Origin: Candidatus Bathyarchaeum tardum
GTDB taxonomy: Archaea; Thermoproteota; Bathyarchaeia; Bathyarchaeales; Bathyarchaeaceae
Reading direction: 5' to 3'
NCBI GenBank assembly: GCA_024650005.2
Contig: CP122380.1
Coordinates: 992,001 to 1,056,000, forward strand
Length of the DNA stretch: 64,000 nt
Part shown: positions 32,825 to 53,947 of the stretch, piece by piece
Layout of the letters: every line of letters starts with the position of its first letter
Position numbering within the stretch: the stretch's first letter is position 1
Made by a program: the position numbers and the translations under genes
Notes under the pieces: model-generated
What the model was told of the DNA's origin: nothing
Database searches by the model: none
Seen by the model: the letters and a program-made list of their open reading frames with translations, nothing else

Positions 32825-33349
32825 TTATACTTTAACTCTGAAGTCTTCTTTTACTACGTTAAGCACAACGTTTGTTACAGTTTTGCTGACATGGGGCATC
32901 TTCAATGCTGATTTGATGAAGTTGTTTAATGCACCGCGGTCTTTGAATCGGGCAACAACTGCTACGTCGTAGTCTCCGGTTATGTCATAAATGCAGATTA
33001 CTTCGTCTAGGGCTGCTAGCTGTTTTTCAACCTCAGGAAGATAACTGCCATCAGCTTGAATGAGAATAAGGGATGTTAAACCATAACCAAGCCGAGCAGA
33101 ATCTAAAAGTATGGTGTAACCTTTGAGAATCCCGCTGTCTTCTAGGTTCTTTACGCGATTATATGCTGTTCCAACAGCAATGCCTAGGCTGTCAGCGATT
33201 TTGTTGAAGCTTTTTCTTGCATCTTCTTGCAGTAAACGTATTATTTTTCTGTCGACTTCATCCACTTTATGATGGGAATCGTTATCCAGTTTTTGTTCCT
33301 CCTCATTGAATGATTGTTTATGAACCAAATTATATTTTTTTGTATTCAT
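32825..33349 (-). CDS. Lrp/AsnC family transcriptional regulator, divergent from glnA
   Basis: DEVDRKIIRLLQEDAR..HTH..YDITGDYD; start uncertain (ATG 33349, or CTG 33289 after GAGGAGG). Confidence 0.92.
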   Translation of the reverse strand: MNTKKYNLVHKQSFNEEEQKLDNDSHHKVDEVDRKIIRLLQEDARKSFNKIADSLGIAVGTAYNRVKNLEDSGILKGYTILLDSARLGYGLTSLILIQADGSYLPEVEKQLAALDEVICIYDITGDYDVAVVARFKDRGALNNFIKSALKMPHVSKTVTNVVLNVVKEDFRVKV

Positions 33350-33450
33350 GAACACTTGTTCATTAGAACAGGATATATATAAGGTTTCCTTCAACTCTCT
33401 AGAAAAGTTTATATACAAATATGTAATAATTTCAATTTCAATTGAATGAA
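33307..33450 (+). promoter_or_regulatory. glnA promoter: TGAA boxes at 33307-33320, 33349-33362 and 33380-33393; TATA TTTATATACAAATA from 33408
   Basis: Sequence and spacing shared with the promoters near 52500 and 53900. Confidence 0.7.
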
Positions 33451-33461
33451 TGGTGAAAGAT

Positions 33462-34919
33462 ATGGATGCTATTACCAAAGCAAAAGAAACCCTGAAAAAA
33501 AACAAAATTCGATGGGTACACACCGCTTTTGTTGATATCCGAGGCCTAATGCAAGACGTAGTTATACCAGCACGCCACTTCACTGAAGGTCAAGCCCTGA
33601 CAGCAGGCATAGGCTTTGACGGTTCATCTGTACGAGGATTCAAAGCCATAAACGAGTCAGACATGATCCTTAAACCCGCTGCAGACACCCTTTCTATTAT
33701 TCCATGGACAACAGACGAAAAACAAAAAAGCGCAATAATCCTAGGAGACGTCTACGAAGCATTCGGAGGCAACCAACCCTCAGTTGTAGACCCCCGAGGA
33801 TATGTAGCAAAAAATGCAGTAAAAGCCGCAGAAGCTATGGGATACACTGGCTTTTTTGGTCCAGAACTAGAATATTTCGTTTTCAAATCAATTGATCCAA
33901 CCACCCTTGTCTGGGACATGTGGGTAAGCCCAAAAGGTGGCTCAGGAGACTCATGGGGAGCACCACGAGTAGTTCCAGTATCTCCCGAAACCACGCCAGG
34001 ATGCCAAGTGCTGCGACCCAAGGAAGCATACTTCCGACCTCCACCTGAAGACACTACAGTTGAATACCGTAATGAAGTTGCATCAATACTTGAAGAAAAC
34101 TTTGACACTGAAATTGAAATGCACCACCACGAAGTCGCTACGGCTGGACAAATTGAAATTGACTTCAAATATGGGGAATTAGTGAAAACAGCTGACCGAA
34201 CTCTCCTTTACAAGTTTGTTGCCAAAAACATTGCAAAACAACATGGTTTAATTGCAACTTTCATGCCCAAACCAGTTTACCTTGACAACGCAAGCGGCAT
34301 GCATGTTCATGCTTCCTTATGGAGCGGAAATACTAACGTCATGTATGACGAAACCGATGAATATGCAGAAATGAGCCAAACAGGCAGATACTTCATCGGA
34401 GGCTTGCTTGACCATGCTCGAGCAATAACTGCAGTCACTTGTCCTACAGTTAACTCTTACAAACGACTTGTTCCAGGATTTGAAGCCCCAATTTTCATTA
34501 TGTGGTCTCGCCGAAACAGGTCAGCAATGATTCGTGTTCCAGTATACTTCAAAGGCCCTGAACATGCAGCAGCCAAACGAGCAGAATTACGTTCCGCGGA
34601 TCCATCATGCAACTCATACTTGGCATTGGCAGTTATCTTAATGGCAGGACTTGACGGCATAAAAAAGAAAACTGAACCCGGAGACCCAGTCGACGAAGAC
34701 GTTTACGAATTACCCACTGAACGCCGAAAAGCCCTTGGAATTCAAGAATTACCAACAACCTTGAAAGATGCATTGGAAGCAATGAAAAGTGACGAAGTAG
34801 TCTTGAAGGCTCTTGGCAGCCACATATTCGATGCATTCATCGACTACAAGACAAATGACTGGAACCAGTTCTGTTTGTATGTAACCCCATGGGAAATAAT
34901 GAAATATCTAGACTATTAA
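33462..34919 (+). CDS. glnA: glutamine synthetase type I
   Basis: FDGSSVRGF, GPELEYF, HHHEVATAGQIEI, FMPKP..SGMHVH, NSYKRLVPGFEAP, NRSAMIRVP. Confidence 0.97.
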   Translation: MDAITKAKETLKKNKIRWVHTAFVDIRGLMQDVVIPARHFTEGQALTAGIGFDGSSVRGFKAINESDMILKPAADTLSIIPWTTDEKQKSAIILGDVYEAFGGNQPSVVDPRGYVAKNAVKAAEAMGYTGFFGPELEYFVFKSIDPTTLVWDMWVSPKGGSGDSWGAPRVVPVSPETTPGCQVLRPKEAYFRPPPEDTTVEYRNEVASILEENFDTEIEMHHHEVATAGQIEIDFKYGELVKTADRTLLYKFVAKNIAKQHGLIATFMPKPVYLDNASGMHVHASLWSGNTNVMYDETDEYAEMSQTGRYFIGGLLDHARAITAVTCPTVNSYKRLVPGFEAPIFIMWSRRNRSAMIRVPVYFKGPEHAAAKRAELRSADPSCNSYLALAVILMAGLDGIKKKTEPGDPVDEDVYELPTERRKALGIQELPTTLKDALEAMKSDEVVLKALGSHIFDAFIDYKTNDWNQFCLYVTPWEIMKYLDY

Positions 34920-34949
34920 AATAAATGATAAGGAGAGAGGTGAATAAAC

Positions 34950-35180
34950 ATGAAAGCGTATCTATTAATCGATACACGACCTGGAACATCCGAGGATGTA
35001 GTCAAAGCCATTAAAATGCGATTCGAAAACGTTCTGCATGTTGACTCAGTATATGGACGCCACGACGTTGTTGCCGTCTTAGAAGCACCAAACCTAGAAG
35101 CCCTCAACGAATTCGTATACAAAGTAATCGAAAAAGACCCCAACATCGTCCACACCGAAACTGCGATTACACTCTTCTAA
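34950..35180 (+). CDS. stand-alone Lrp/AsnC ligand-binding domain protein
   Basis: AYLLIDTRPG..VYGRHDVVA..HTETAI; GAGGTGA SD. Confidence 0.9.
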   Translation: MKAYLLIDTRPGTSEDVVKAIKMRFENVLHVDSVYGRHDVVAVLEAPNLEALNEFVYKVIEKDPNIVHTETAITLF

Positions 35181-35195
35181 ACAGGAGAGAACAAT

Positions 35196-35456
35196 ATGAC
35201 TCAAAAAGATCTCCGCAGCAAAAAAATCCGGGCGTTCGTACTCGTTACGATGAGACCGGGCACTTCGGAGGAGATCGTACAGTCAAGGAAGATAAAAGGT
35301 ATAAAACTCGCCAATTCAGTTCTGGGACGGTTCGACGCAGTAGCAATAATAGAGGCAGACAATTCAGAGCAACTCGCAGAAATCATCTACGAAATGATGG
35401 AAAAGAACCACAACGTGATTCACACTGAAACATTGCTGTCAATGTTCATACCTTAA
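35196..35456 (+). CDS. stand-alone Lrp/AsnC ligand-binding domain protein
   Basis: AFVLVTMRPG..VLGRFDAVA..HTETL. Confidence 0.88.
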   Translation: MTQKDLRSKKIRAFVLVTMRPGTSEEIVQSRKIKGIKLANSVLGRFDAVAIIEADNSEQLAEIIYEMMEKNHNVIHTETLLSMFIP

Positions 35457-35630
35457 ACAAAGTTCCTTGACAAAAACGTTCAACATCCAAAGTGCCAAGT
35501 CGGGTCAAAAAAGCCCGCCAATTTCCTTTTTTATTTTCTTTTTCCAAATAATTTCTTTTTAAAATTAACACTTATAGAAAAGTATTTGTTTAGCACCTGC
35601 TTTTTTCAGGGTTTATCAGTGGTGTATAAC

Positions 35631-36431
35631 ATGTCTGCTGAGTTGCTAACTAATGATCAAATCTTTAGGATAATTATCGCACTGGTTATTGTTGGAATTA
35701 CTATTGTTCTTGACAAAGTTATCCGCAGATCAATAACAAGATATGGCCAAAAAACGTGTATGGAACCGCATGCTATTAATATTTTAAAGTTACTCGCAAG
35801 AATACTTGTTGTAGCTGGAGGCGTAGTTTCTCTACTCGGACTTTTTGAAGTGCCCACTGAATGGTTTTTCGGAGCATCAGCACTTACTGGAACCGCTATA
35901 GGTTTTGCTTCCACTCAAACCGTAGGCAATTTCTTGGCTGGTTTCTACATTATGATTTCTAGACCGTTCATGGTACGGGATTACGTAAAAATTGGAGATG
36001 TAGAAGGCGAAGTAACAGAGATAACAATAAACTACACTAAGATTTACACGCCATCATACAACATAACTGAGATTCCCAACAAGAAAGTCTTGGATAGCAT
36101 TATTCGCAACTATTCTGGAACAAAAGACATAATCGATTACTCATTCAAGATGGGCTTCCCCCATTTGGACCACAAAACCAACAAACAGATGATCGAAGAC
36201 TGCATCAAACCCACAATTGAAAAATTCTATGAAAAATACAAAGACATTCTTCCACAGAAACCTGAAGCAAATATGCTTACGATGGATCGCCTTGGACGGG
36301 AAGTAAACATCAGAATGTTTTTCCCTGAAGGGAAAATTAATGACTTCTACAACCTTCAACCTGAACTGATGCGAGATATAATTCACTGCTGGGACAAATT
36401 CAAAACAGGTAAATGTGATAAAAGCTGTTAG
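35631..36431 (+). CDS. MscS family mechanosensitive channel
   Basis: AIGFASTQTVGNFLAG..RPFMVRDYVKIG..EGEVTEI..IPN. Confidence 0.9.
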   Translation: MSAELLTNDQIFRIIIALVIVGITIVLDKVIRRSITRYGQKTCMEPHAINILKLLARILVVAGGVVSLLGLFEVPTEWFFGASALTGTAIGFASTQTVGNFLAGFYIMISRPFMVRDYVKIGDVEGEVTEITINYTKIYTPSYNITEIPNKKVLDSIIRNYSGTKDIIDYSFKMGFPHLDHKTNKQMIEDCIKPTIEKFYEKYKDILPQKPEANMLTMDRLGREVNIRMFFPEGKINDFYNLQPELMRDIIHCWDKFKTGKCDKSC

Positions 36432-36552
36432 GTTATTCCTAACTTTCACCATTTTTTTGTTTTTCACATAAATCGTTTTTTGTCTGTCACATTTTTCACT
36501 TCACAAGAAGTCATATCTACTTTTTGGCATAAATGCGCAAACGTGAAAAAGA

Positions 36553-37032
36553 ATGCAAAGGAAAAACTTGCTAAAGACTGGAGTGCTTGCAACGTTGTTA
36601 CTTGTTTCAAGTTTTGCTACTGTAGTGTATGCACTTGCATACACAGAGAAACATGAAGTAATCTACAGCAACACCATCACAATTGACGGCCAAGAAGTAA
36701 AGTTCAGGGCATTCTATTTGTCTTCACCTGCAGCGTTTTTTGAAGTCAAACTAACTGTTTCAGAAGGAACAATAAAGTGGACGCCTCACTCTGCAGTGAT
36801 GTTTGACGACACTCAAGGATGGTTCCCCTGTCGATTAGGCAACGACACATTTGGGAAAATCCAAAGATGGGTAAGTGAAACAGACAACGGAACAGTAAGC
36901 TGGCGCGTAGACCAAGAAAACGTTGACATGGTATGGTACATCAACTTGTTCAACCCTGACGACTACGAAAAAGAAGTGCATATCGAAATCATCAAAGTTT
37001 GGGAAACCCAAAACTACAACGAATGGATGTAA
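36553..37032 (+). CDS. secreted hypothetical protein
   Basis: N-terminal signal peptide, beta-rich body. Confidence 0.65.
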   Translation: MQRKNLLKTGVLATLLLVSSFATVVYALAYTEKHEVIYSNTITIDGQEVKFRAFYLSSPAAFFEVKLTVSEGTIKWTPHSAVMFDDTQGWFPCRLGNDTFGKIQRWVSETDNGTVSWRVDQENVDMVWYINLFNPDDYEKEVHIEIIKVWETQNYNEWM

Positions 37033-37223
37033 CTATCCAAACAAAATTACAAAACACGTTGACAATAAGCAGAAAAACCTGACTAGTTCAGGTTCAACTT
37101 TCTTCTATTTTTTAAAAGAATATCATTATTTTTGGAAGCCAAAAACAATTTACAAACAGCAAAACAATTGAATAAACTTTAATTAAGTCCACGTTTCGCA
37201 AGTTTACTCCTATGTTGCACAAT

Positions 37224-37921
37224 CTATTTCGGTTTGCGGAAATACCATTCCTCTCCATCTGTTTGAACCAAATCCCACCATCATTAATGAATTCAATTCG
37301 TTCCTGTTTGTTGAAGCAATTTGAGTTAGAAATTCCTTTAGTGCTTACCCCATATATCTGCTCATAGACTTCTACATATCGCATTGTAGTTAAGACGCTT
37401 CGGTGTCCCATTATTTTTTTAACATGGGTAAGAAGTCTTGTCCGGTGGTATTCTCTAAGGGCTTTACAATGACGAAATGTATGCACATAAATTTTTAGGA
37501 ATCTTGGGTTATTGTGTTGTCGTGCCAGATTTTTCATTCTGTTTCTGAAAGAGTTGGTTCTTGTGTTTTTTGCTACTTTGGGAAATACGATGTTTTCATT
37601 ATTTTGTAAAGTGTTGAGCATGTTGATTAATTCCTCTGGAACCGGAACGATTCTTTAAACGCCGTTCTTTGACGCTTTCAAGGTCACTAAATTTTTTTCT
37701 TTGTTGATGTCAGCCCATTCGAGTCGTTCAGCTTCTTTGCATAGGGTGCCAGTTTCGTCTAGAAAATGTGAAAATATTATACTTGTCGTGTCACCAATGC
37801 TTTTTGCTAATATACGTTCGGTTTTAGGGGGGATAAAAGGAAATTTATGTTCCGGTCGGTAATTGGGTTTTTCCCAAGTTTTCCAACAAACATTACCTAA
37901 GCAATAAAAACATTTTCCCAT
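37224..37921 (-). pseudogene. tyrosine recombinase/integrase remnant with several frameshifts
   Basis: FIP.., ETGTLCKEA (Arg lost), LKASKN, HTFRH, MGHRSVLTTMRY, out-of-frame tail DGEEWYFRKPK. Confidence 0.85.
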
Positions 37922-38118
37922 CCATGAACATATTTCTGTTTGAAGATTGTCCCATATAATTTTTGAAAAAAATAACTTTTTTTGTTATGATTTTCTTTAG
38001 TTTTTTTCTATATAAAAATTTCATTAGTTTTTAATATCACTTTATTTTCCAGTTAAATGTAAAGATCTTAGTGTCTATGAACATGATAAAAAATCATGAA
38101 AGAATGAATTAAATTTTA

Positions 38119-40437
38119 TTGGAAATTGGGTCTGTTTTGCGAACTCTCAAGGGTTTAAAATTAGTTAAATTATCTAAAAAAGTATTGTTTGTGTTATGTT
38201 TAACAGTTTTAGCAACGAATCTATTAATTCAAACTGGTCCATTATTTGTTAAAGCTCAGGATTTAACTGAGCCAATAATCTCAATAATTTCTCCTACAAA
38301 CCGTGTGTATTCAACAAAAATCATCGACCTAGACTTTAGTGTAAATGAGGAAGTTTCTTGGATTGGTTATAGTTTGGATGGAAAGAGCAATCAAACAATT
38401 GATGGGAACATAACTCTTCCCGAATTGTCTGAAGGAGTTCACACAATAGTTGTTTTCGCGACAGATTTAGCAGAAAACACAGGAAAATCAGATACTATAG
38501 CTTTTGAAGTTTCACTTCCTTTACCGGACAAAGAACCCCCAACAATAACAATTCTCTCGCCCACATCCACCACCTATCCTACCAATGATGTGGAACTAAT
38601 TTTTACAATAAATGAAAAAGTTTCTGTGATAGAGTATAGTTTAGATGGGGCAGAAAATCAACAAATCTCAGGAAACACAACCCTAAAATCATTGTCTGAA
38701 GGTCATCACAAAATAGTTGTTTACGCTACGGACTTGGCAGGAAACACTGGAAAATCAAATCCAATAAATTTCAATATTTCAATTGCTCCACCGGATACAG
38801 AACCCCCAACAATAACAATTCTTTCTCCCGCATCCACCACCTATTTTACTAACGATGTTGACCTAACTTTTACGGTTGATGAACAAGTCTCGTGGACAGG
38901 GTACAGTTTAGATGGCACAGCAAACCAAACTAGCGGCAACACCACATTATCGTCACTATCGGATGGTGTCCACACAATAGTTGTATACGCTACAGACTTG
39001 GCAGAAAACACAGGAAAGTCAAGTATAATTTACTTTGTAGTCTCACTATCCCAACCTGACACGGAAGCTCCAACAATAACAATTCTTTCGCCCACATCGA
39101 CCACCTACTCTACAGGCAATGTGGAGCTTAATTTTACGATAAGTGAGACTGTTTTTTGGATTGGATATAGTTTGGATGGTACAAGCAATCAGACAATTTC
39201 AGGAAATACAATTCTTGCTTCATTGTCAGAGGGAAGTCACAATTTAGCTGTTTATGCCACGGACCTTGCAGGAAACACTGGAAAATCAGATATTATAAAT
39301 TTTGAAGTTGTTATTCCTCCTCCAGACACCGAATCTCCAACAATAAATGTTAATTCACCGCAAAATTTGACTTATTCTTCAAGTAATGTTCCAATTAATT
39401 TGACGGTAAGTGAGGAGACTTTTTGGATTGGTTATAGTGTTGATGGGAATGAAAACGTTACAATTTATGGCAACTATACCATTTGGGCGTTAGGTGATGG
39501 TGTTCATAGTTTGGTTGTTTATGCTACTGATTTGTCGGGAAATACTGGAAAAAGTGATGTTGTTTATTTTTCTGTTGACACGGTGCCTCCTGTTGTGATT
39601 ATTTGGCCGCCGGGAAATGAGACATATCCTAGTTCTGAGGTTGATGTTTATTTTGTTTTTAATGAGGAGCTTTCATGGATTGTTTATAGTTTAGATAGAG
39701 GAAAAAATCAAAGCATAACTGGTAATTTTACTCTTTCGTCTTTGTCTGATGGTCCCCACAGTGTTGTGATTTATTCTGCTGATAAGGTTAATAACACGGA
39801 TAGGTCAAACATTGTTTATTTTTCAGTTGACACGACTCTTCCAGTTGTTAATTTGTTGTCACCTAAAAATGTGACTTATACTACAAATGGTGTTGATTTT
39901 AATTTTAAGGTAGAGGAGGACACTTCCTGGATTGGGTATAGTTTGGATGGGGGGAGTAATCGGACTGTAGATGGTAATTTTACTCTTTCGTCTTTGTCTG
40001 ATGGAGAGCATAGTGTTGTTGTTTATGCTCTGGATGCCAAAAAGGTGAACATGGGAAAGGCTTTTGTTTTCTTTACGGTGGATACGACTCCTCCCGAGGT
40101 TGTGATAAAATCTCCTGTTGATAACAAAACATACACTGATTCAAATAACATAACTTTATCATTTACAGTTAATGAGAAGGGTGTTTTGAAGTATTCTCTT
40201 GATGGGCAAGCTAACATTACTGTTGTGAATTCAACGGTTTTGTATAATTTATCTAATGGGGAACATAATTTGACAATGTTTGCAGAAGATTTGTATGGAA
40301 ACAAGGGTAAAACGGGGACAATTGTTTTTGAGGTGGATTTTGATCGAATACTGAGACCTTTGGAAATTGTTGCTGTTTCAGTAATAATAGTTGCAGCATT
40401 CTCGTTTATAATCATTAAAACATATAAAAATAAATAG
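38119..40437 (+). CDS. cell-surface protein with about 8 tandem Ig-like repeats and C-terminal TM anchor
   Basis: Repeated DTEPPTITILSP..FTVNE.VSWIGYSLDG..LSEGxH.IVVYATDLAGNTGKS (about 88 aa). Confidence 0.88.
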   Translation: MEIGSVLRTLKGLKLVKLSKKVLFVLCLTVLATNLLIQTGPLFVKAQDLTEPIISIISPTNRVYSTKIIDLDFSVNEEVSWIGYSLDGKSNQTIDGNITLPELSEGVHTIVVFATDLAENTGKSDTIAFEVSLPLPDKEPPTITILSPTSTTYPTNDVELIFTINEKVSVIEYSLDGAENQQISGNTTLKSLSEGHHKIVVYATDLAGNTGKSNPINFNISIAPPDTEPPTITILSPASTTYFTNDVDLTFTVDEQVSWTGYSLDGTANQTSGNTTLSSLSDGVHTIVVYATDLAENTGKSSIIYFVVSLSQPDTEAPTITILSPTSTTYSTGNVELNFTISETVFWIGYSLDGTSNQTISGNTILASLSEGSHNLAVYATDLAGNTGKSDIINFEVVIPPPDTESPTINVNSPQNLTYSSSNVPINLTVSEETFWIGYSVDGNENVTIYGNYTIWALGDGVHSLVVYATDLSGNTGKSDVVYFSVDTVPPVVIIWPPGNETYPSSEVDVYFVFNEELSWIVYSLDRGKNQSITGNFTLSSLSDGPHSVVIYSADKVNNTDRSNIVYFSVDTTLPVVNLLSPKNVTYTTNGVDFNFKVEEDTSWIGYSLDGGSNRTVDGNFTLSSLSDGEHSVVVYALDAKKVNMGKAFVFFTVDTTPPEVVIKSPVDNKTYTDSNNITLSFTVNEKGVLKYSLDGQANITVVNSTVLYNLSNGEHNLTMFAEDLYGNKGKTGTIVFEVDFDRILRPLEIVAVSVIIVAAFSFIIIKTYKNK

Positions 40438-40859
40438 AAAATATTTATCTCCTAATCAAAAAGGGAAAAAAAATTTACAGGGTTAAGAAGCTTTTTTTGG
40501 CAAAGTTTTTTGGTTTTTTAATATAAATTAATATTTATACGAACAACATCGCTTGTTTAAGTTGAAAACTCGATTCAAGATGCCCCATTATAATATTCAA
40601 GATATCTACACGGTTACACACACAGAAACGCCAAATCGGACAAGTGCATGTGCGGTGGGGGTTTCCCTTTGTGATTTTCCGCATAATGTGTGAGGTTGAA
40701 CCATGAAAGATTCTTTATTGTTTGTTAGGTTTTTTCGTCAGTAAAGCAGTTAACTGTGTAGCCATCTGGTTAAGTTTAGCTTCTAATTTTTCCATGAAAA
40801 TTATTAAAAACAAATTTCTATTTATAAATAACGTAACAATTAATAAATTGGCGATAAAT

Positions 40860-44459: not shown

Positions 44460-44484
44460 AATTCCCATTTTTGGATGAATAGAA

Positions 44485-45159: not shown

Positions 45160-45254
45160 AAAGGTTTATTAACTGTTTGTTGTTTGTTGCTAGTTGTTCC
45201 GATGGGATGTGACCCAATTTTGGGTTGAACCGAAAGAATGTGAGGAATAAAAAA

Positions 45255-45827
45255 ATGGCATACAATTATATTGCAGAGGCTTGGAAAAATCCCGATAAAA
45301 CCTATGTGAAAGAGTTAATGTGGCAAAGAGCCATAACTTGGCGTAAAGAACACGCTATTATAAGAATTGAAAGACCAACCAGACTAGATCGTGCACGAAA
45401 CCTTGGATACAAAGCCAAACAAGGAATAATTATGGCTAGAGTCAGGGTTAGACGCTCTGGTTTTCGAAAAACACGACCAACTGGTGGTCGCCGACAAAAA
45501 CGTTTGGGTGTAAACAAATTTAAAGTCGGCAAAAACATGCGACTAATAGCCGAAGAACGTGCTGCAAGAAAATTCCCTAATCTAGAAGTATTGAATTCTT
45601 ATTGGGTCTGGGAAGATGGGCGCTTCAAATGGTACGAAGTAATCATGGTTGACCCCGTTGTTTTGCCTGATCATCCAATATCAAGTCAAACACGACGTGT
45701 GTTCCGTGGATTAACTAGCGCAGGTAAACAAGCTCGTGGGCTTCATAACCGTGGACGAGGCGCAGAAAAAGTCCGACCTAGCAAAAAAGCTATTCTGCGA
45801 ATCAGAAACAAGCATCCCCGTAAATAA
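45255..45827 (+). CDS. rpl15e: 50S ribosomal protein L15e
   Basis: [41 protein letters not shown]. Confidence 0.97.
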
Positions 45828-45832
45828 ACCCG

Positions 45833-45880
45833 TTTGGGGCTTCCTTTTTGTGGAATCCCCAAATCATATTTTTTATTTTT
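45833..45880 (+). terminator. hairpin TTTGGGG-CTTCC..GGAAT-CCCCAAA with T-tract after rpl15e
   Basis: Inverted repeat followed by T-rich run. Confidence 0.45.
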
Positions 45881-45945
45881 TTAAGTATCACTTGACATAT
45901 TTATATCAAGTAATGTTATAGGTTTGTATGCGAGAGTGAACATGT

Positions 45946-46392
45946 TTGCCTCAGTTTCCAGTAGCTTATGTTGATGTTCGATTTTGTGCCCACGCCACTG
46001 AAGATGTTGAAAAAGTTATGAAGGCAGTTAGAAACGTTTTGTCAATCAAGAACGAAGAAGATGAAATAGCATTCAATAAAGACAGCCTAGAAGGTCATTA
46101 TGGTAATCCTATTGTTTTTTTTGACGCAAGAATCAAAAACAAAATCGCTATAAAGGCACTAGTTGGTAACCTGTCTGAAAACCTTAGTTCATTTGATAAA
46201 GTTGAATTAAGTTCAACACTGGACCGTTGCTTTGAAAAAGGAAGCATTTACCTGCGAGTGGACAAACAAGCAGCCTTGCAAGGTAAAATTAAACTTGTAG
46301 CCTGTGACCCGATTCGTATTCGTTTGCGTTTCAGAAAAACCAAGCTAGAAGATGTAACTCAAGTCTGTAAAGAAATCGGGATGTTAACATGA
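45946..46392 (+). CDS. exosome-associated RNA-binding protein (DUF54/COG1325)
   Basis: HATEDVEKV, EGHYGNPI, YLRVDKQAA. Confidence 0.9.
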   Translation: MPQFPVAYVDVRFCAHATEDVEKVMKAVRNVLSIKNEEDEIAFNKDSLEGHYGNPIVFFDARIKNKIAIKALVGNLSENLSSFDKVELSSTLDRCFEKGSIYLRVDKQAALQGKIKLVACDPIRIRLRFRKTKLEDVTQVCKEIGMLT

Positions 46393-47120
46393 AATTTTTT
46401 GCTGATTTGCAGTTACGTGTTCCTCTTAACGATCCTGTTCAAACAAAAAAAATGGTACAAAAAGCTGCACATTTAGGCTACCAAATGTTAGGAATTCCTG
46501 TTCCAGAAAATGCTACCTCGCAACTAATTAGCAACCTCAAAAACATTTGTGCCTCAGCAGATGTTGACTTTGTTTCAAGAGTGAATCTTTCTCCCAGTAA
46601 CTCCAATTCACTTCTCAAAGACTTGCGAAAATACCGAAGAAAATTCGAAATCATATCAGTGAGATGCAACACAAAAGATGTTGCCCGCCAAGCTGCCAAA
46701 GACCGACGAGTAGACCTTTTACAGTTTTCAGTAACCAATATGCGACAAAGGTTTTTTGACAACCAAGAAGCAGAACTTGCCGGAACTGCCCTTTCAGCTC
46801 TTGAAATTGAGTTAGCTCCAATTCTGCAGTTGACGCCCTTGTCTCGGATTTATCTTTTGTCTCGTCTGCGAAAAGAAATTGGAACAGCAAAACGAAGCAA
46901 AGTCCCTGTAATACTATCTAGTGCTGCAACAACTGAACACCTGATGAGAGGACCTTACGATAATGCCGCAGTTACAACCCTTTTTGATTTTTCTGTAGAA
47001 TCTGCGTTGAAGGCATTATCATCAAATGCATTGTTTATCGTTGAACGAAACAGAAAAAAATTGAGCCCTACTTATGTAGCCCCTGGAATACAGGTTCTAG
47101 GACTGAAAAACTGTGATTAA
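46389..47120 (+). CDS. rnp3: RNase P subunit p30
   Basis: RRKFEIISV, RQAAKDRRVDLL, ALEIEL, PVILSSAA..MRGP; operon context. Confidence 0.88.
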   Translation: MKFFADLQLRVPLNDPVQTKKMVQKAAHLGYQMLGIPVPENATSQLISNLKNICASADVDFVSRVNLSPSNSNSLLKDLRKYRRKFEIISVRCNTKDVARQAAKDRRVDLLQFSVTNMRQRFFDNQEAELAGTALSALEIELAPILQLTPLSRIYLLSRLRKEIGTAKRSKVPVILSSAATTEHLMRGPYDNAAVTTLFDFSVESALKALSSNALFIVERNRKKLSPTYVAPGIQVLGLKNCD

Positions 47121-47427
47121 ACGAGAAAAACGTCGCTATTTAGCATTACAAGTTTCAAGTGACCAAAATTTTGAAGAATTTACAGTTTTTAATGCTGTTA
47201 AAAATTCAGTTCTTAGACTTTTTGGAGAATATGGCTCCAGCAAAGCTAATCTAAAACAGCTCAAATATTTTCCCGGAAAAAACCAAATAATTATTCGATG
47301 CTCCCATACAATGCTTGAACAAGTTCGAGCCGCTGTAGCAACAATTATTGAAATAAATGGAAAAACAGCAGCTGTACACGTTAAAGCTGTATCTGGAACT
47401 TTGAAGTCTTTGTCAAAAAAGATATAG
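47113..47427 (+). CDS. rnp2: RNase P subunit Pop5
   Basis: KRRYLA, LFGEYG, IIRC, VSGTLK. Confidence 0.9.
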   Translation: MIKREKRRYLALQVSSDQNFEEFTVFNAVKNSVLRLFGEYGSSKANLKQLKYFPGKNQIIIRCSHTMLEQVRAAVATIIEINGKTAAVHVKAVSGTLKSLSKKI

Positions 47428-47448
47428 AAAAAAAGAATTTTTTATTTA

Positions 47449-50199
47449 TTATGGGTTCTCGATTGTTCGAGTGTTGTATTCATCTATGTAGTTTTGGTTT
47501 TCTATGGTATATGGGTAACTTTCTAGCTCCATGTCATATGGGAAGCAGCTCATTTCGTGGAATGGCAATGGGTCAACGGTAAAATCAACGTAGAATAATC
47601 CGTCAACTTTGAACCATACGCTTGCAAACAGGAAATAATCCCGTTCCATGCCTTCTGGAACTTCAGGCAAGTCATCTACAGAATAATGAAGAACGATTTG
47701 GTCGCCTTGGCGCATTATTACGAATTGGTTGTCGGGGTTATGAAGCAGTTCGGTTACTTCTCCATATCTTGTGAAGTTTCCTGTTGAATTGGAGTTTGTA
47801 GCAAATGCTTGAGTTAAATTAGCAAAATAAACTGGTAATTCGCCAACGATTATCTCTTGTTGTGCTGTTGTGTCAACTGCTATGTAATCAAATTCCGTGT
47901 TGAAGAATGTGTGTATTCTAAGGGCGTAATCTCCTGGCTGGAAAAGTCCTGTTAGGTTTATGGCAAAACAGTCTGGAGTAACATCTAACAACGGGAATTG
48001 TCGATTGTCTGGAACCGGAACCCAATTGCCTTTTGCATCTCTTACTTCCATGTATGGCGGAGGAAACGGTCGTTCACCGGGTTGGTTAAAGAATTGTCCC
48101 GCCCATTCTCCTTGTTCTTCTCCTGTGGAGTAAATGATTGTTCCTGCTACTAACAGTTTGATTTGTTCTGCCTCAGACAAATCTCCTAAATTTAATTCCA
48201 AAGTGTCCCAAGTGAATTCGTTGCCTTTTGTAGTGATTCCATCTCGTTCTGAAACTAAATGCAGCACATTGTGTCCTGTTGAGTTAACGCAAGAAACGGG
48301 CGAAGATGGGTTATTGCTTACGGTGTAGATTGTTCCTTGTTCGTCAAGGTCATATAGATATGTGGCTTTAGTTGAAAACACATCGAATTCTACTGGGTGG
48401 TCAACGTAAACCAAAGTTGCAGAGTCTATGTATGAAATTTCATCCCATTTTTGAATGAGAGTCATATCGTAGAAACCGTTTCGAGGTTCCATTCGGCTGG
48501 CATTTAGTTTAGTATAATCCCAAGGAACACTATACAGGAACAATAAACTTCCATCTTCTTGGAAGTAATCAAAGATGCCAAGATAGCCTGTTCCGTCGGA
48601 TATTTCTGCGGTGTACCAATATTCTTCCCCATTCCAAACATACAAGGAAGGACAAGACTTACAATTCAGATAAGTTGCAGTAAGGGAAACACGATTATTT
48701 AACTCAATAGTTCGGGTAAGACTTGTTGGGCCATCATTCCAACGGGTCCAATTCCACCAAGTGCCTCCCCCTTCAAAACCATCAGGCAATTCAACGATGT
48801 AAGTTCCTTCAGGCAATAATCTTTGATAAGGTGCAGCATAAGTTTCGCCATCTATAGTAAACTCCATTCCAATGGCGTTAACTGAAACAGAAAAGGTATG
48901 GAATCCATCAGGAACAACCTGATAATATCCCGATAAAAAGTTAGTTTGATTTCCCATGTTTACTAGCTGAACCCTGTATCCATCGGGTTTTCCATCATCA
49001 CGGCTGTACGACACAGTGATTGGAACCTCAATTGGAACGTCTGTTGCACCTGAATCTAATGTGAATGTTTTAGTAGTTACAACAACGTCACCAACAAAAA
49101 CCCTTAACTGCAGAGTAGCTTGCTCATTGGCGAAATTATCTGCTTTGGCTTTGACTGTTACAGTTTGTCCGTCCCAAAGCTCGTATGGCGCCACACTTAA
49201 ACTGCGTATAAAAACATCGGCAGATGCAGAAACCGATTGTTCTACAACAAAAATTCCCGACAGGTGGTCTATCTCAACGGTATGTGTCCCAGCTGCGGTT
49301 TCAGTAATTTCAAATTCAACAACTTTGCTTGCAGCTCCAGACAAAGTAACAGTTTTTGTTTCAATTGTTGTGCCGTCAACTGTTAGATTCACATCATAAC
49401 TGCCGCTGCTTTCACCAACATTGGTTACCGTAACTGAAACAGTGACGCTTTCATCATCTAATACTGATGTTGGGTTAATCGTCAAATCAGTGAATTTAAA
49501 CTCAGCCTGTGTAGCAGCTTGGGCGCCAGCAGAAACCCTATACGCTGTGGTTAAGTCACCTGCCTTAACGACATGCTCTCCTTCAATGTCACGGGTGACA
49601 TCAAAAAACACAGTTGTGGTTTCGGTTCCATCTAATTGGATGTTTTGAGTTTCTTGTTTTACATCATTTACGAATAATTCTACTGAAAAATCACCCAGTA
49701 AATCACCAACATTTTTTGCAGTAACAGAAACTGTGATTGTTTCTCCAATGGCAGCCTCAGGGCGACTTACTTTTAGGGCAGACAATTTAAGTTCAGCTGG
49801 CCTTACAGGTTTTTCTAATGTAACCCGGATTGACCCCGTTAAATCATTAACAGTAACTGTGTGATTTCCAATTTCTAATTCTGTGGCTAAGAAAAAAATT
49901 GTTTCAGTTTCTGACGCTGAAAGAGAAACAGTTTCAGTTCCTATTACAACTTCACCAATAGTTAGACGTACTGTATGATTACCTGCTTTGTCTCCAACGT
50001 TAGCTACATCCACTGAGATTTCTACTGGAGTGCCTACTTGAACCCAGTTATAATCAAAATCAAGATTAGTCACCTGAAATTTGGCGGGTTTTGGGATTAA
50101 TGAATCTACGTAGACGTAACTGGGAACTGCAACTGCTAAAATTACCAAAGTTGCAACAAAAATAATTTTTAATTTATTCCGGGTTGACCGAGGAGACAC
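47449..50199 (-). CDS. membrane-anchored CARDB-repeat protein with C-terminal SCP-x-LY-x-WNG domain
   Basis: N-terminal TM; about 4 Ig/CARDB repeats (VxVxNVG); CKSCPSLYVWNG..VDHP..FTRYGEV..PLPFHEM..YNTR. Confidence 0.75.
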   Translation of the reverse strand: MSPRSTRNKLKIIFVATLVILAVAVPSYVYVDSLIPKPAKFQVTNLDFDYNWVQVGTPVEISVDVANVGDKAGNHTVRLTIGEVVIGTETVSLSASETETIFFLATELEIGNHTVTVNDLTGSIRVTLEKPVRPAELKLSALKVSRPEAAIGETITVSVTAKNVGDLLGDFSVELFVNDVKQETQNIQLDGTETTTVFFDVTRDIEGEHVVKAGDLTTAYRVSAGAQAATQAEFKFTDLTINPTSVLDDESVTVSVTVTNVGESSGSYDVNLTVDGTTIETKTVTLSGAASKVVEFEITETAAGTHTVEIDHLSGIFVVEQSVSASADVFIRSLSVAPYELWDGQTVTVKAKADNFANEQATLQLRVFVGDVVVTTKTFTLDSGATDVPIEVPITVSYSRDDGKPDGYRVQLVNMGNQTNFLSGYYQVVPDGFHTFSVSVNAIGMEFTIDGETYAAPYQRLLPEGTYIVELPDGFEGGGTWWNWTRWNDGPTSLTRTIELNNRVSLTATYLNCKSCPSLYVWNGEEYWYTAEISDGTGYLGIFDYFQEDGSLLFLYSVPWDYTKLNASRMEPRNGFYDMTLIQKWDEISYIDSATLVYVDHPVEFDVFSTKATYLYDLDEQGTIYTVSNNPSSPVSCVNSTGHNVLHLVSERDGITTKGNEFTWDTLELNLGDLSEAEQIKLLVAGTIIYSTGEEQGEWAGQFFNQPGERPFPPPYMEVRDAKGNWVPVPDNRQFPLLDVTPDCFAINLTGLFQPGDYALRIHTFFNTEFDYIAVDTTAQQEIIVGELPVYFANLTQAFATNSNSTGNFTRYGEVTELLHNPDNQFVIMRQGDQIVLHYSVDDLPEVPEGMERDYFLFASVWFKVDGLFYVDFTVDPLPFHEMSCFPYDMELESYPYTIENQNYIDEYNTRTIENP

Positions 50200-50348
50200 A
50201 GCACCAACTCACAAGAATGAAATGTTCATTCTTACTTCAATATTTAAGACCTTCGTAACATAGTTGTTTAAATCAAAAATTGTCAAATTAACATAGAATT
50301 GACCTAAAACTAATTTTGTAGACACGAAAAAATTAGATCAAAACTAAA

Positions 50349-50381
50349 TTAAAAAAGAAAAAGGGTTGCGCCCTTAGGCGC
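50349..50381 (-). terminator. hairpin GCGCC-TAAG-GGCGC with T-tract after amt
   Basis: Minus strand reads gcgcctaagggcgcaacccttttctttttt. Confidence 0.5.
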
Positions 50382-50389
50382 TATGAAGT

Positions 50390-51709
50390 TTATTTTTCTT
50401 CCATCATGTCTTCGGGGTATGCTAGGGTCTTGTGTAGTGCGATATCCAGACCGTATAGTTCTGCATCTCGTCCGACACGGAGTAAGTTCGCTTTTTTGAG
50501 GATACCAAACATTACCAGTCCCATTACTGTAGCCCACAGGAATATTGCACCTGCACCGATTGCCTGTATTCCGAGTTGACCAATCCATGTTGTCATGTCC
50601 GCGAATCCATAGATTGGGTGTGCTCCAAGGGCAGTTCCGCCAAAGATTCCAGTTGCTAACAGTCCCCAAACTCCACATGCTGCGTGAACTGGGAAACATC
50701 CTAAAGCGTCGTCAATGTGTAGTTTGTGTTCAAGGACTCCCATCGTGAATGTTGTGATTACTCCTGCGATTATACCGATTACGAACCCTGCTAACGGATG
50801 GACTATGTGGGCTCCGGAACATATTGCAACAGCACCTGCAAGCAAACCAACCATGCTTGTTAGCACATGACCTCTTGAGGTGATTGCTGCTCCGAACATT
50901 CCTCCAGCCATACACATTGCTGTAGTCAGTGAGACCCATGCAAGTTCTACGTTGATTGTCATTGGATCTGCAGCTACGCTTGAGCCAACGTTAAAGCCGA
51001 ACCAACCGAAAGCCAGTAACCATGCACCAATTACAGACAATGGGATGCTGTGTCCAAAGAATGTTCTCGGCATCTTCTTGTCGCCTACGAACTTTCCAAT
51101 CCTTGGTCCAATCATTATTGCACCCATTAATGCAAGTGTTCCACCAACTAGGTGAACTACCCCTGAACCTGCGTAATCGATGAAACCCAGTTCTGATAGC
51201 CAGCCTCCACCCCAGACCCAGTGTTCAACTACGGGGTAGATGAAACCAGAGATTCCTGCAGCTGCAACTATCCAGCCCCAGAATTTGTCACGTTCTGCTA
51301 AACCTCCTGGGACTATACCTACGACGGTAATTGCAAACATTGCCATTTTGAACCATGTTGCAAGGTCGCCTATTCCAGAGGGGCTTGCGGCTAAACCGTA
51401 AGCACCCGTTTCGGACAGCAATGGTGGCAGTGGGTTAGCTATTGTTGGAGCAAACTGTGGAATCCCAAACACAGGTTCAGCTACATAATATGCTAGAGGG
51501 AATCCAATTAGGAAGTACACGACGAATGCGAGTGTCCATCCTACGTTGATTTGCAGTATAGTGTGAGTGACGTTCTTTTTACGGACCATTCCTGCATAGA
51601 ACAAGGCAAATCCTGCAGTTGCCATGATGAAAATGGCTACAGGTGCCCATCCTACGAAAAAGTTCTGCTGGAACGCCGCCCATGTTTCAGTTGCTTGATC
51701 TAACATCAT
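50390..51709 (-). CDS. amt: ammonium transporter
   Basis: GFALFYAGMVRKKN, YPVVEHWVWGGGWL, DYAGSGVVH, GWFGFNVGS, DDALGCFPVH. Confidence 0.97.
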   Translation of the reverse strand: MMLDQATETWAAFQQNFFVGWAPVAIFIMATAGFALFYAGMVRKKNVTHTILQINVGWTLAFVVYFLIGFPLAYYVAEPVFGIPQFAPTIANPLPPLLSETGAYGLAASPSGIGDLATWFKMAMFAITVVGIVPGGLAERDKFWGWIVAAAGISGFIYPVVEHWVWGGGWLSELGFIDYAGSGVVHLVGGTLALMGAIMIGPRIGKFVGDKKMPRTFFGHSIPLSVIGAWLLAFGWFGFNVGSSVAADPMTINVELAWVSLTTAMCMAGGMFGAAITSRGHVLTSMVGLLAGAVAICSGAHIVHPLAGFVIGIIAGVITTFTMGVLEHKLHIDDALGCFPVHAACGVWGLLATGIFGGTALGAHPIYGFADMTTWIGQLGIQAIGAGAIFLWATVMGLVMFGILKKANLLRVGRDAELYGLDIALHKTLAYPEDMMEEK

Positions 51710-51719
51710 TCATCACCAT

Positions 51720-52460
51720 TTATTCATTTCCGAACCAAACGGGCTTCAGTGAGAAGGGTATTTCTTCTACGGACAATCCACCCGCTTTGATGTTCAGTTT
51801 TAATACTTGAGGTTTCATGGGAACACTTCGCGCCTTTTTAATAAGGAAAACGCGTGTCCAGACTACGTCGTGTTTTCGGTAGTCAAGGTAAATCAAATGG
51901 TCTACAAGGTATTCGGTAATGCCAGGGGTTGCAGGAATGCCTTCGGCACTAAATAGTGTGGTTGCTCCTTGGGCTTTGGTTTCCATTAGTATCTTCATGA
52001 AGACTTGTCGGAATTCTTTTGAATCAGATAAACGCCTTGCAAGAGAAGATAACGAGTCGATTACAATCCTAACGGCACTTGGCTGGGCTTTCAATCCTCT
52101 TGTAACTATGTCCATTGCTTCTGTTTTGTCTACAAGACAATACTCGCTAGCATAGCTTGCAGTGATTGAAAGGTTAACTACTTTTATTGTTCCATTTTGA
52201 ATTAGTTTTGGGAAATCGGACCAGAGCTCTCCTCCGGTTCGCATTACTGTTTCGGGGGTTTCCTCGGTTGTGATGTACAAGCATTTTTCGCCATTTTTTG
52301 CGCCTTTGTAAAGAAATTGCAAACAACTAATGGTCTTGCCAGTACCTGGTTCACCGCGCACTAGTATTGCATCGCCCTTTGGGATTCCTGGAATGAACTT
52401 ATCCAAGCCATCCATTCCGATGTCAACCCATTCAATATTTGATGTTTGTTGCATTACCAT
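51720..52460 (-). CDS. single-domain KaiC/RAD55-like ATPase, co-transcribed with amt
   Basis: GEPGTGKT, YITTEE, IVIDSLS, EYLVD, KKAR; 10-nt gap to amt containing GGTGA SD. Confidence 0.88.
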   Translation of the reverse strand: MVMQQTSNIEWVDIGMDGLDKFIPGIPKGDAILVRGEPGTGKTISCLQFLYKGAKNGEKCLYITTEETPETVMRTGGELWSDFPKLIQNGTIKVVNLSITASYASEYCLVDKTEAMDIVTRGLKAQPSAVRIVIDSLSSLARRLSDSKEFRQVFMKILMETKAQGATTLFSAEGIPATPGITEYLVDHLIYLDYRKHDVVWTRVFLIKKARSVPMKPQVLKLNIKAGGLSVEEIPFSLKPVWFGNE

Positions 52461-52465
52461 GTCGA

Positions 52466-52572
52466 TCACTTCTTATTCAATTAAATTGCTAGATATTGAC
52501 TATTTGTATATAAATATTTCTTTTTTATTGAATGATTGTTTAGTGCTGAAGTTAACATTGAATGAACGTTCA
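52466..52572 (-). promoter_or_regulatory. kaiC-like/amt promoter: TATA 52507-52514; boxes 52529-52542 and 52559-52572
   Basis: Matches the glnA and second kaiC-like promoters. Confidence 0.7.
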
Positions 52573-52724
52573 AAATTGCATAAAATATTATAATGTGGAT
52601 GAATTTTGCGTTAAAATTTAATAAAAATTGGAATTTTTTCTGATAAAAATTAAACCATAAAAATTATGTTAAATGAAAATAGTTTAAGTTGAAAAAATAT
52701 ACATGTTCATGTTTACAAAAGGCG

Positions 52725-52915
52725 TAAAAAAAGCGGATAAAAAACCGAGATAATTATGTGTTGTTGGGCTTGGAAACAATTAAAGCTGTTCCCACACTGG
52801 GGTCTAAGGCTGTGGACCCTGACCAGATAAACGTAACAAACTGAAACTAGATGAGGCGAGTCACGTTGGCTGTGATCCGGATCCACAGTTTAAGCCAAAT
52901 TATGGTATTACCATT
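52725..52915 (-). ncRNA. candidate structured small RNA
   Basis: GC-enriched island, 10-bp stem (52810-52819 with 52879-52888), extra hairpins, upstream TATA-like element and downstream T-tracts on minus strand. Confidence 0.4.
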
Positions 52916-53094
52916 TAAAATAAAAGTGTTACTGTTTTACTATAAAATGAAAGACAATAATATTAACGGTTTAATTAAACCTCAGCGTTTGTACAGGAAA
53001 TTTGGAATTGATTATTTTTAGTATAAACAATTTTTTTAGAGAGGAAAAATAGAGAACCTCATTGGGGGAGCATGAAGTTCCTGTTGGAAGTGAA

Positions 53095-53835
53095 TTATAT
53101 TTTGCTTTGGAACCACACAGGGTTAAGGGCAAATGGGGTTTCTTCTACTGACAGTCCGCCTTTTTGAATGTACAGTTTTAGTATCTGTGGCTTGAGAGGT
53201 ACGCTTCGGGATTTTCGCAGAATGAAAACTCGAGTCCATTCTGTGTCTTGTTTTCGGTAGTCGAGATATACTAAGTGGTCTACGAGGTATTCGGTGATGT
53301 CGGGGGTCATGGGGATGCCTTCTGCTGTTAGTACTACTGTTGCGTTTTTTTGTTTGGTTTCCAGTAGCAATTTCATGAAGACTTCTCGAAATTCTTCGTA
53401 GTCAGACAGCCGCTGATCTAACGAAGACAACGAATCAATTACGATTCTAGATGCCCCTGGTTGAGTGGCAAAGCCTGTTTCAGCGATTTTCATTGCTTCT
53501 GCTTTTCCTAGTAAGCCATATTCGTTAGCGCATTCGCCAGTTATGGACATGTTTACAAATTTGATTACTCCCTTTTCAACTAATTTGGGGAACTCGGGCC
53601 ATAGCTCTGCTCCTGTTCGTAGTATTGATTCTGGGGTTTCTTCTGTTGTAATGTAGAGGCATTTTTCTCCATTTTTTGCGCCTTGATACAGGAATTGTAA
53701 GCAAACTATAGTTTTACCTGTGCCGGGATCGCCGCGCACTAGTATTGCATCGCCTTTTGGGAGTCCTGGAATGAAATCCTCTAGTCCAGATACGCCAAAG
53801 TCGATCCATTCTATGTTTGATGTTTTTTGACTCAT
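53095..53835 (-). CDS. single-domain KaiC/RAD55-like ATPase (paralog of 51720-52460)
   Basis: GDPGTGKT, YITTEE, IVIDSLS, EYLVDHLVYLDY, RKSR. Confidence 0.88.
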   Translation of the reverse strand: MSQKTSNIEWIDFGVSGLEDFIPGLPKGDAILVRGDPGTGKTIVCLQFLYQGAKNGEKCLYITTEETPESILRTGAELWPEFPKLVEKGVIKFVNMSITGECANEYGLLGKAEAMKIAETGFATQPGASRIVIDSLSSLDQRLSDYEEFREVFMKLLLETKQKNATVVLTAEGIPMTPDITEYLVDHLVYLDYRKQDTEWTRVFILRKSRSVPLKPQILKLYIQKGGLSVEETPFALNPVWFQSKI

Positions 53836-53840
53836 GCTGA

Positions 53841-53947
53841 TCACATCTCATTCAATTAATTGTCTAGATATTGACTATTTGTATATAAGTATTTCTTTTT
53901 TACTGAACATTTTTTTATACTTGCTTTTATAACTGAATATTTATTCA
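53841..53947 (-). promoter_or_regulatory. second kaiC-like promoter: TATA 53882-53889; boxes 53904-53917 and 53934-53947
   Basis: Near copy of 52466-52535 with the same box spacing. Confidence 0.7.

Follow-up and report, generated by a model that had tools for sequence, protein, structure and literature searches.

In this study, we investigated a window of 64,000 nucleotides of Candidatus Bathyarchaeum tardum (the whole stretch analysed, positions 992,001 to 1,056,000 of contig CP122380.1), and observed that the glutamine synthetase gene glnA, a KaiC-like ATPase gene followed by the ammonium transporter gene amt, and a second kaiC-like gene share one promoter layout around a 14-bp operator-like palindrome, TGAA-N6-TTCA. 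The shared layout is real, conserved and regulon-like, and it arises neither from chance nor from recent duplication. The palindrome-marked genes have ammonium uptake and assimilation as their common theme, and the palindrome is probably the operator of a nitrogen-assimilation regulon, most likely bound by the Lrp/AsnC-family protein (Lrp) whose gene lies divergent from glnA. A candidate nitrogen regulon of glnA, kaiC/amt and the second kaiC-like gene had been proposed in an earlier sequence-only reading of the window; our data support it and widen it to a glutamate synthase-like (GOGAT-like) gene, asparagine synthase-like (asnB-like) genes and a second ammonium transporter gene (amt2).

The own genome (G000) comprises 2,152,572 bp (~2.15 Mb), and 40 relatives served as the source of orthologous promoters, of which 24 belong to the same genus and 16 to other families of the order; relatives are given as G0xx labels and promoter rows as L labels. 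McrA was not found in this lineage, which is thus non-methanogenic and has been little studied. The genes concerned are as follows, in window coordinates:
32825..33265, minus strand: lrp, Lrp/AsnC-family regulator of 146 amino acids from GTG 33265, divergent from glnA (Pfam HTH_AsnC-type, HTH_24 and AsnC_trans_reg)
33462..34919, plus strand: glnA, glutamine synthetase (Pfam Gln-synt_C, 3.3e-124, plus Gln-synt_N)
50390..51709, minus strand: amt, ammonium transporter, 10 nt downstream of kaiC-like 1 (Pfam Ammonium_transp, 3.6e-93)
51720..52460, minus strand: kaiC-like 1 (kaiC1), single-domain KaiC/RecA-type ATPase of 246 amino acids (Pfam PF06745, 2.6e-43)
53095..53835, minus strand: kaiC-like 2 (kaiC2), protein 69% identical to that of kaiC-like 1 (Pfam PF06745, 1.1e-42)

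The three promoters are assembled from the same elements, which are listed below together with those of the lrp promoter (BRE, the TFB recognition element); the boxes, the palindromes and the 16-mer are given without strand:
33409..33421, plus strand: TATA 13-mer TTATATACAAATA of glnA, one of only 3 genomic copies
52501..52513, minus strand: TATA 13-mer TTATATACAAATA of kaiC1/amt, from an exact word search of the genome
53876..53888, minus strand: TATA 13-mer TTATATACAAATA of kaiC2, from the same search
33440..33447, plus strand: AATTGAAT at the predicted glnA transcription start, 18 nt past the 13-mer
52475..52482, minus strand: AATTGAAT of the kaiC1/amt promoter (sequence, word search)
53850..53857, minus strand: AATTGAAT of the kaiC2 promoter (sequence, word search)
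33380..33393: glnA proximal box TAAGGTTTCCTTCA, its TTCA end 15 nt before TTATATA, overlapping the lrp BRE/TATA
52529..52542: kaiC1 proximal box, TAAACAATCATTCA in gene direction, with TTCA at the same offset in most kaiC-like promoters
53904..53917: kaiC2 proximal box
33349..33362: glnA distal palindrome TGAACACTTGTTCA, 46 nt upstream of the glnA TTATATA and starting 20 nt after the lrp TTATATA (sequence, genus alignment)
52559..52572: kaiC1 distal palindrome TGAATGAACGTTCA, 45 nt from the TATA
53934..53947: kaiC2 distal palindrome TGAATATTTATTCA, 45 nt from the TATA
33305..33320: 16-mer ATTGAATGATTGTTTA in the lrp leader by the lrp Shine-Dalgarno, identical to the kaiC1 proximal box region, 2 genomic copies
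33375..33390, minus strand: putative lrp core promoter, BRE GGAAACC plus TTATATATA, read from the sequence

With regard to spacing, the 13-mer is confined to these three promoters in the whole genome, and in 3/3 of them exactly 18 nt separate it from AATTGAAT and 14 nt separate AATTGAAT from the ATG, with a Shine-Dalgarno of GGTGA or GTGATC in the latter interval, complementary to the usual archaeal 16S rRNA 3' end. All three proximal boxes end 15 nt from TTATATA, the spacing from distal palindrome to start codon is common to all three promoters, and the distal and proximal boxes lie 30-31 bp apart, centre to centre. The consensus of the 14-bp site is TGAAYR-NN-YRTTCA, which can be written as TGAA-N6-TTCA or, in a 5+4+5 division, as TGAAY-N4-RTTCA. 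The sequence-only reading had described the 13-mer followed by AATTGAAT, the proximal boxes 15 nt from the TATA, the distal palindromes 45-46 nt upstream (46, 45 and 45 nt) and a 16-mer identical at 33305 and 52527 (exactly 2 genomic copies of ATTGAATGATTGTTTA), and all of these were found just where it had placed them. It had also set the lrp TATA between the two boxes, where it indeed lies; the distal palindrome 20 nt after it fits autorepression. The divergent lrp promoter reads GGAAACC-TTATATA on the minus strand and is overlapped by the glnA proximal box, so that the conservation of this box is over-determined, and the TATATAAGCTTTCCTTCA of the lrp core promoter is nearly invariant across the genus. 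The TTGAAT part of the lrp-leader 16-mer is retained in most, not all, genus orthologues (by eye).

The layout was observed to be kept among the relatives. A perfect TGAA-N6-TTCA lies 46 nt from TTATA in 21/21 genus glnA promoters, one further locus being unreadable at its N-terminus, and 44-45 nt from TTATA in 28/30 kaiC-like promoters, both misses being in G022, where the right arm alone is retained. Four kaiC1 genes that directly follow kaiC2 and have no promoter of their own were left out of the kaiC-like count, as were the non-genus rows L019 (cut), L021, L028 and L029 from the glnA count; L021 and L028 are without a perfect palindrome and L029 has half-sites (by eye). The non-genus glnA rows that stayed in include L020 and L022, both with a perfect palindrome at 45 nt, and L023, with 6/8 arm bases. 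Across about 50 orthologous promoters the palindrome arms are invariant, the six inner bases vary and the flanks drift, a pattern typical of sites bound by protein. From 31 kaiC-like promoters, none of them of the own genome, an nhmmer profile was made that found both own kaiC promoters and then the own glnA promoter as its best non-kaiC match (E 5.5e-7, aligned at profile positions 10-119); reciprocally, a glnA profile of 20 sequences matched the kaiC/amt promoter (E 6e-4), and anchored conservation profiles showed the same blocks in the glnA and kaiC-like promoter sets.

The palindrome was also found to be specific within the own genome, for which gene calls were crude (longest open reading frames (ORFs), 84% of the genome coding). 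A weight matrix built from foreign palindromes and scanned over the own genome at a cut-off of 16.5 bits gave ten sites, of which 9/10 were intergenic, and none of 200 column-permuted palindromic matrices reached this number (0/200, mean 2.1 intergenic). TTGAAT at offset +33 was found at 4/199 genomic TTATATA sites, namely the three promoters and that of an asnB-like gene (asnB-like 2), which marks it as a regulon-specific element and not a general initiator. Single sites of TTATATACAAAT, CAATTNAATTGAAT and CAATTAATTGAAT (G000 187491, 1264652 and 1876995) were taken as chance occurrences, apparently coding and without a TATA (by eye).

One could suppose that no regulator is shared, and that promoter duplication or gene conversion together with the strong core promoter of highly expressed genes produced the likeness. 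The paralogy of kaiC1 and kaiC2, the glnA proximal box doubling as the lrp BRE/TATA, and TTTATATA as simply a good TATA box would agree with this. It is nevertheless hardly credible, as the arms stay fixed in the orthologous promoters while spacer and flanks drift, the palindrome also occurs at the GOGAT-like (gltB-like) gene and at amt2 with different layouts, the rarity of the TTGAAT element speaks against a general promoter feature, and matrix matches are strongly enriched in intergenic DNA. The sequence-only reading had regarded the two kaiC-like promoters as duplicates; they do not represent a recent duplicate, the proteins being 69% identical and both promoters being kept across the genus.

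The nine intergenic matrix sites include lrp/glnA, kaiC1-amt, kaiC2 and the GOGAT-like gene, and the remaining ones lie upstream of a DUF996 gene, in the gap that separates a DsrE-like gene from a small one, where an HTH_3 (helix-turn-helix) gene begins and, in two cases, without an obvious target. Two genes of the own genome that carry the site or the layout are:
G000 304825-306414: GOGAT-like (gltB-like) gene, 529 amino acids, glutamate-synthase (Glu_synthase) domain, palindrome upstream
G000 745644-746630: asnB-like 2, Asn_synthase domain, full promoter layout

The palindrome is perfect in 21/22 genus promoters of the GOGAT-like gene, with a conserved TGAATGTTT half-site 27 nt beyond it. 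In asnB-like 2, 17 nt lie between the boxes and 15 nt before the TATA, with TTGAAT at +33; this layout is patchy across the genus and is retained only in the nearest relatives and a few others. Another asnB-like gene, asnB-like 1, has a glnA-like core promoter (profile E 7e-4). The second ammonium transporter gene, amt2, occurs in relatives (~30% identical to the first) and was not found in the own genome; 8/9 genus amt2 promoters carry 1-3 perfect palindromes, and in five loci these form a tandem pair 21-23 bp apart, centre to centre. On these grounds, the predicted members in the own genome are glnA with lrp, kaiC-like 1-amt, kaiC-like 2, the GOGAT-like gene and at least one asparagine-synthase-like gene, to which the relatives add amt2.

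Comparatively, several sequence features point to the glnA-divergent Lrp as the binder, and this protein is favoured because its paralogues adjoin nitrogen genes, the palindrome has a fixed 20-nt placement in its own promoter, and the box spacings are Lrp-like. The protein belongs to the Lrp/AsnC (feast/famine regulatory protein, FFRP) family by PF13404 (3.9e-13) and PF01037 (1.6e-15); 25 solved Lrp/AsnC chains match it (best 6.8e-29), the closest solved relatives being 8q90 and PH1519/FL11, and its best NCBIfam model is the haloarchaeal Lrp (NF041396) at 118.9 bits against a cut-off of 190 bits, which makes it a homologue and not an equivalog. An lrp orthologue is divergent from glnA at every genus locus seen, and the same arrangement was found in G049, G069, G028 and G034. 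Three Lrp paralogues of the same subfamily were noticed, one beside an asnB-like gene (G019), one beside amt2 (G023) and one upstream of amt (G040), and the asnB-like locus of G019 carries a copy of the entire intergenic layout. In all the lrp promoters read in detail (G000, L057, L200, L204 and L104), the distance from the first T of the lrp TTATA to the start of the palindrome is exactly 20 nt. Within the family, the 3/20 genera that have a close Lrp orthologue are also those with this type of GlnA; the lrp-glnA pair may be travelling as a cassette.

The spacings were compared with those of known Lrp-type regulators (papers are cited by PMC number, from the portions of their text available). 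Lrp-type sites are spaced two or three helical turns apart, and for Lrp-type activators a dimer site is described whose position, a few bp from the BRE, is constrained (PMC2995911, available part). The sites found here are 30-31 bp and 21-23 bp apart, corresponding to three and two helical turns, and a site near the BRE is likewise present by position, with TTCA 15 nt before TTATATA at glnA, kaiC1, kaiC2 and asnB-like 2, an offset that holds in most kaiC-like orthologues. The palindrome in lrp's own promoter is, by position, also what autoregulation would call for.

With reference to the GlnA of the family, two types were observed: this one (at least 74% identity) in 3/20 genera, always with a close Lrp, and a 45-51% identical type in the others. 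Upstream of lrp (window 33266-33304), a conserved AGGAGGAA is present, and in most relatives an ATG comes after it; the own genome and its two closest relatives are without that ATG, and no in-frame start precedes GTG 33265, about 33 nt on (by eye). A further Lrp/AsnC-like gene (by eye from its N-terminus) was seen at G000 207440-207949 (L207), divergent from an operon at 204598-207247 that encodes a small Cys-rich protein, gdhA and nrpR1; no TGAA-N6-TTCA was found at this locus.

A number of observations weigh against the assignment to Lrp or against the activating role discussed below, and are gathered here with the rival binders. The relatives are kin and thus non-independent, with the bulk of the conservation counts coming from one genus. 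In G038, the Lrp orthologue (68% identical) is not linked to glnA, and no perfect palindrome lies upstream of it. The target promoters carry perfect TTTATATA boxes, and activator-dependent promoters are often without perfect TATA boxes. In 5/9 genus amt2 promoters, a perfect palindrome stands directly after the TATA, in a repressor-type position. The site is an even 14-bp palindrome (5+4+5), in contrast to the 13-bp form abcde-WWW-edcba of characterised archaeal FFRP sites (PMC2715240, available part), so that it differs in form from the FL11-type sites cited in the sequence-only reading.

Another regulator could bind the palindrome, the neighbouring Lrp genes being its targets or unrelated local regulators. 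The assignment of a binder by gene neighbourhood is indirect, the even 14-bp palindrome is atypical for Lrp sites as described in the available part of PMC2715240, the unlinked Lrp orthologue of G038 has no site, and the genome contains many HTH genes, with 35 first-look candidates from the Lrp query alone. We nonetheless consider this rather unlikely, as repeated linkage to the motif was seen for three Lrp paralogues and for no further regulator gene. One candidate, the HTH_3 protein of 145 amino acids (G000 1860926) with a palindrome at its start site, was rejected, since the palindrome is kept there only in the 3 closest genomes and the conserved operator of its gene is a different palindrome, ATGAC-N4-GTCAT. 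This other word (ATATGACATACGTCAT) abuts the TATA in almost every orthologue of the HTH_3 gene within the order, often in two copies (L140-L167; G000 ~1860830-1860925), and is also found after the TATA upstream of nrpR2 (G000 ~1957950-1958000); it looks like a separate autoregulated regulon touching NrpR.

The second rival binder is NrpR, in which case the palindromes would be operators of the NrpR homologues, with TGAA-N6-TTCA instead of GGAA-N6-TTCC and with 2-oxoglutarate releasing NrpR under nitrogen limitation. The sequence-only reading had contrasted its regulon with the NrpR scheme of methanogens, and this was too quick, given that two NrpR-domain genes are present and that the NrpR site has the same 4-N6-4 geometry (PMC4335013, available part). 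Indeed, these two genes (PF01995, 9.8e-74 and 2.5e-71) and the GGAAN6TTCC operator, which targets glnA and amt (PMC4335013, PMC3087415, in the parts available), belong among the points that count against Lrp. NrpR was found in 23/24 other genus genomes, nrpR1 directly follows gdhA, and the palindrome stands after the TATA at five amt2 promoters and at lrp, where NrpR operators sit (PMC5512572, available part). However, this reading is made unlikely mainly by three relatives, G028, G038 and G034 (92, 99 and 98% complete), in which searches with the Pfam model and with the own NrpR protein gave no NrpR; the strict palindrome TGAAYRNNYRTTCA has 1, 2 and 1 copies there, one copy each at a glnA gene. 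Conversely, G033 has NrpR and this GlnA type, yet no perfect palindrome at glnA. Moreover, at glnA, kaiC and gltB the strong site stands 45-67 nt upstream of the TATA instead of past the start site, neither nrpR2 nor the gdhA-nrpR1 operon was seen to have a palindrome upstream, and the arms are TGAA/TTCA throughout the promoters, with GGAA-N6-TTCC at background level (59 genomic sites, 6 intergenic, none at the regulon promoters).

Taking Lrp as the favoured binder, a working scheme can be proposed. Dimers of an oligomeric Lrp would occupy the strong distal palindrome, centred ~53 bp upstream of the TATA, and also the weaker proximal half-palindrome, with exactly 15 nt from the end of its TTCA to the TATA and a few bp to the BRE. 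The BRE-proximal Lrp would then control the assembly of TBP and TFB, with activation suggested by analogy with Ptr2, LysM and Ss-LrpB, and the regulon-specific TTGAAT at the predicted transcription start could offer a third contact; this start, ~30 nt after the TATA, is an estimate roughly calibrated on one tRNA promoter. In front of lrp, this distal palindrome begins 20 nt past the TATA and lies over the predicted start site, where it would bring about self-repression. We lean towards activation at glnA and the kaiC-type promoters because the position of the proximal box and the spacings of 2-3 turns fit Lrp-type activators, and likewise towards self-repression at lrp because the palindrome covers its predicted start site. 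Repression of the targets is a possible alternative, in view of the perfect TATA boxes, the amt2 operator right after the TATA and TTGAAT at the predicted start. Glutamine or 2-oxoglutarate would be the obvious effector candidates.

Concerning the KaiC-like ATPases, amt1 (the amt of the window) comes directly after kaiC-like 1 in the own genome, and likewise in each of the 15 relatives where one contig holds both genes; the six genomes of the genus that gave no kaiC-like match are also without amt1. In several relatives, amt2, kaiC2, kaiC1 and amt1 stand in one cluster, and the own genome appears to have lost amt2, leaving kaiC2 alone behind its promoter. PII (PF00543) was detected in 0/25 genus genomes and in 13/14 control genomes, and the only PII match among the 41 genomes was in G035, beside amt. 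The KaiC-like proteins are single-domain, in contrast to the two tandem domains of KaiC clock proteins, and fall below the cut-offs of all NCBIfam KaiC models. The glnA-like operator layout, the kaiC1-amt1 adjacency, the kaiC2-amt2 cluster and the joint presence and loss raise the idea that the KaiC-like ATPases replace GlnK as nitrogen-status transducers gating the ammonium transporters, and perhaps glutamine synthetase or Lrp, which we regard as possible though doubtful. A predicted complex of Amt with kaiC-like 1 (score 0.00, from shallow alignments of 9 and 16 rows) speaks neither for nor against this idea.

Other observations were made beside these genes. In G013 (L188) and G011 (L199), a kaiC-type promoter stands before amt2, together with a short ORF like a kaiC-like N-terminal remnant (by eye). 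A kaiC-type promoter (nhmmer E 0.048, G000 ~796685-797100; L213-L226) stands before a small Zn-ribbon-like ORF, a homologue of which lies directly upstream of asnB-like 2 in many relatives (by eye). Another such match (E 0.015, G000 ~46209-46312, minus strand) precedes only an ORF of 33 codons, between a mevalonate-kinase-like gene and its upstream gene; its product may be a small protein or a non-coding RNA. A conserved GGCRAnAGGUUGCCGUAUACCG with a small hairpin lies in the GOGAT-like leader (L110, G000 ~304750-304824; L111-L131), which gave no Rfam match; within the window, an Rfam scan returned one tRNA and nothing else. Seven sequencing runs were listed for the lrp-glnA stretch, all with small shares (0.05-0.06) and all in the form of contigs, which do not reveal transcription starts. 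Archaeal AmoA (PF12942) gave no match, but none in the control genomes either, so that this negative carries no weight.

Among known systems, one of the closest is the haloarchaeal Lrp. The Halobacterium Lrp (OE3923F) adjoins glnA and induces it (PMC2894021), and an lrp beside glnA is common in halophiles, often in the opposite direction (PMC8229911), as far as the available parts of these papers go. As in Hbt. salinarum (OE3923F) and Haloferax mediterranei (HFX_RS01210), an Lrp/AsnC gene stands beside glnA in our genome (PMC2894021, PMC8229911), and the acid-rich AsnC-family structure 8q90 is the best solved relative. On the other hand, no defined operator is given in the available parts of PMC2894021 and PMC8229911, whereas a 14-bp site was found here and its regulon predicted from sequence; this regulon goes beyond the haloarchaeal Lrp-glnA pairing by including kaiC-like ATPases, amt and a GOGAT-like gene.

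The control regions bound by Sa-Lrp of Sulfolobus acidocaldarius include those of gltB, gdhA and three glnA genes (PMC3584215, available part), and the gene set of this protein, which like Grp of S. tokodaii is a glutamine-responsive Lrp, is largely the same as ours. Sa-Lrp is an architectural protein for which no consensus site is given in the part of PMC3584215 available, in contrast to the sharp 14-bp palindrome at fixed promoter positions, and gdhA, a Sa-Lrp target there, has no palindrome here. Ptr2, LysM and Ss-LrpB share a BRE-near site, an extra upstream site, a spacing of 2-3 turns and autoregulation (PMC2995911, available part), all of which are matched here by site position. The half-site TGAA resembles the FL11 half-site TGAAA (PMC2715240), and the FL11 contact residues L24, A34, E35, S36, T37 and H39 correspond in our alignment to F, A, V, G, T and Y (numbering of PMC2715240, available part).

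The NrpR regulon of methanogens has the same target functions, glnA and amt, and the same inverted-repeat geometry (PMC4335013, available part), but the outer arm base differs and its operator lies just after the start (PMC5512572, available part), whereas ours lies mainly upstream of the TATA. The amt-glnK pairing likewise joins a transporter to a small cytoplasmic nucleotide-binding partner under nitrogen control, here as a prediction from sequence, with the difference that the PII partner is downstream of amt and the KaiC-like ATPase upstream of it. The kind of system is already known; what is new is the sharp 14-bp operator with a base-exact grammar, the coexistence with NrpR and the membership of kaiC-like genes. 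Within the literature collection searched, no paper was found that combines 'Bathyarchae', Lrp and glutamine synthetase, and none that combines KaiC-like, archaea and ammonium transporter.

In summary, what is understood of archaeal nitrogen control concerns methanogens (NrpR) and, in part, haloarchaea and Sulfolobus (Lrp-type), and this finding supplies a defined operator, a base-exact promoter grammar and a coherent predicted regulon. The case is compact, with one protein, one 14-bp site and about six promoters. With both Lrp and NrpR present, one can ask how they divide the work, and the pairing of amt with a KaiC-like ATPase where PII was not found bears on the roles of archaeal KaiC-like proteins.

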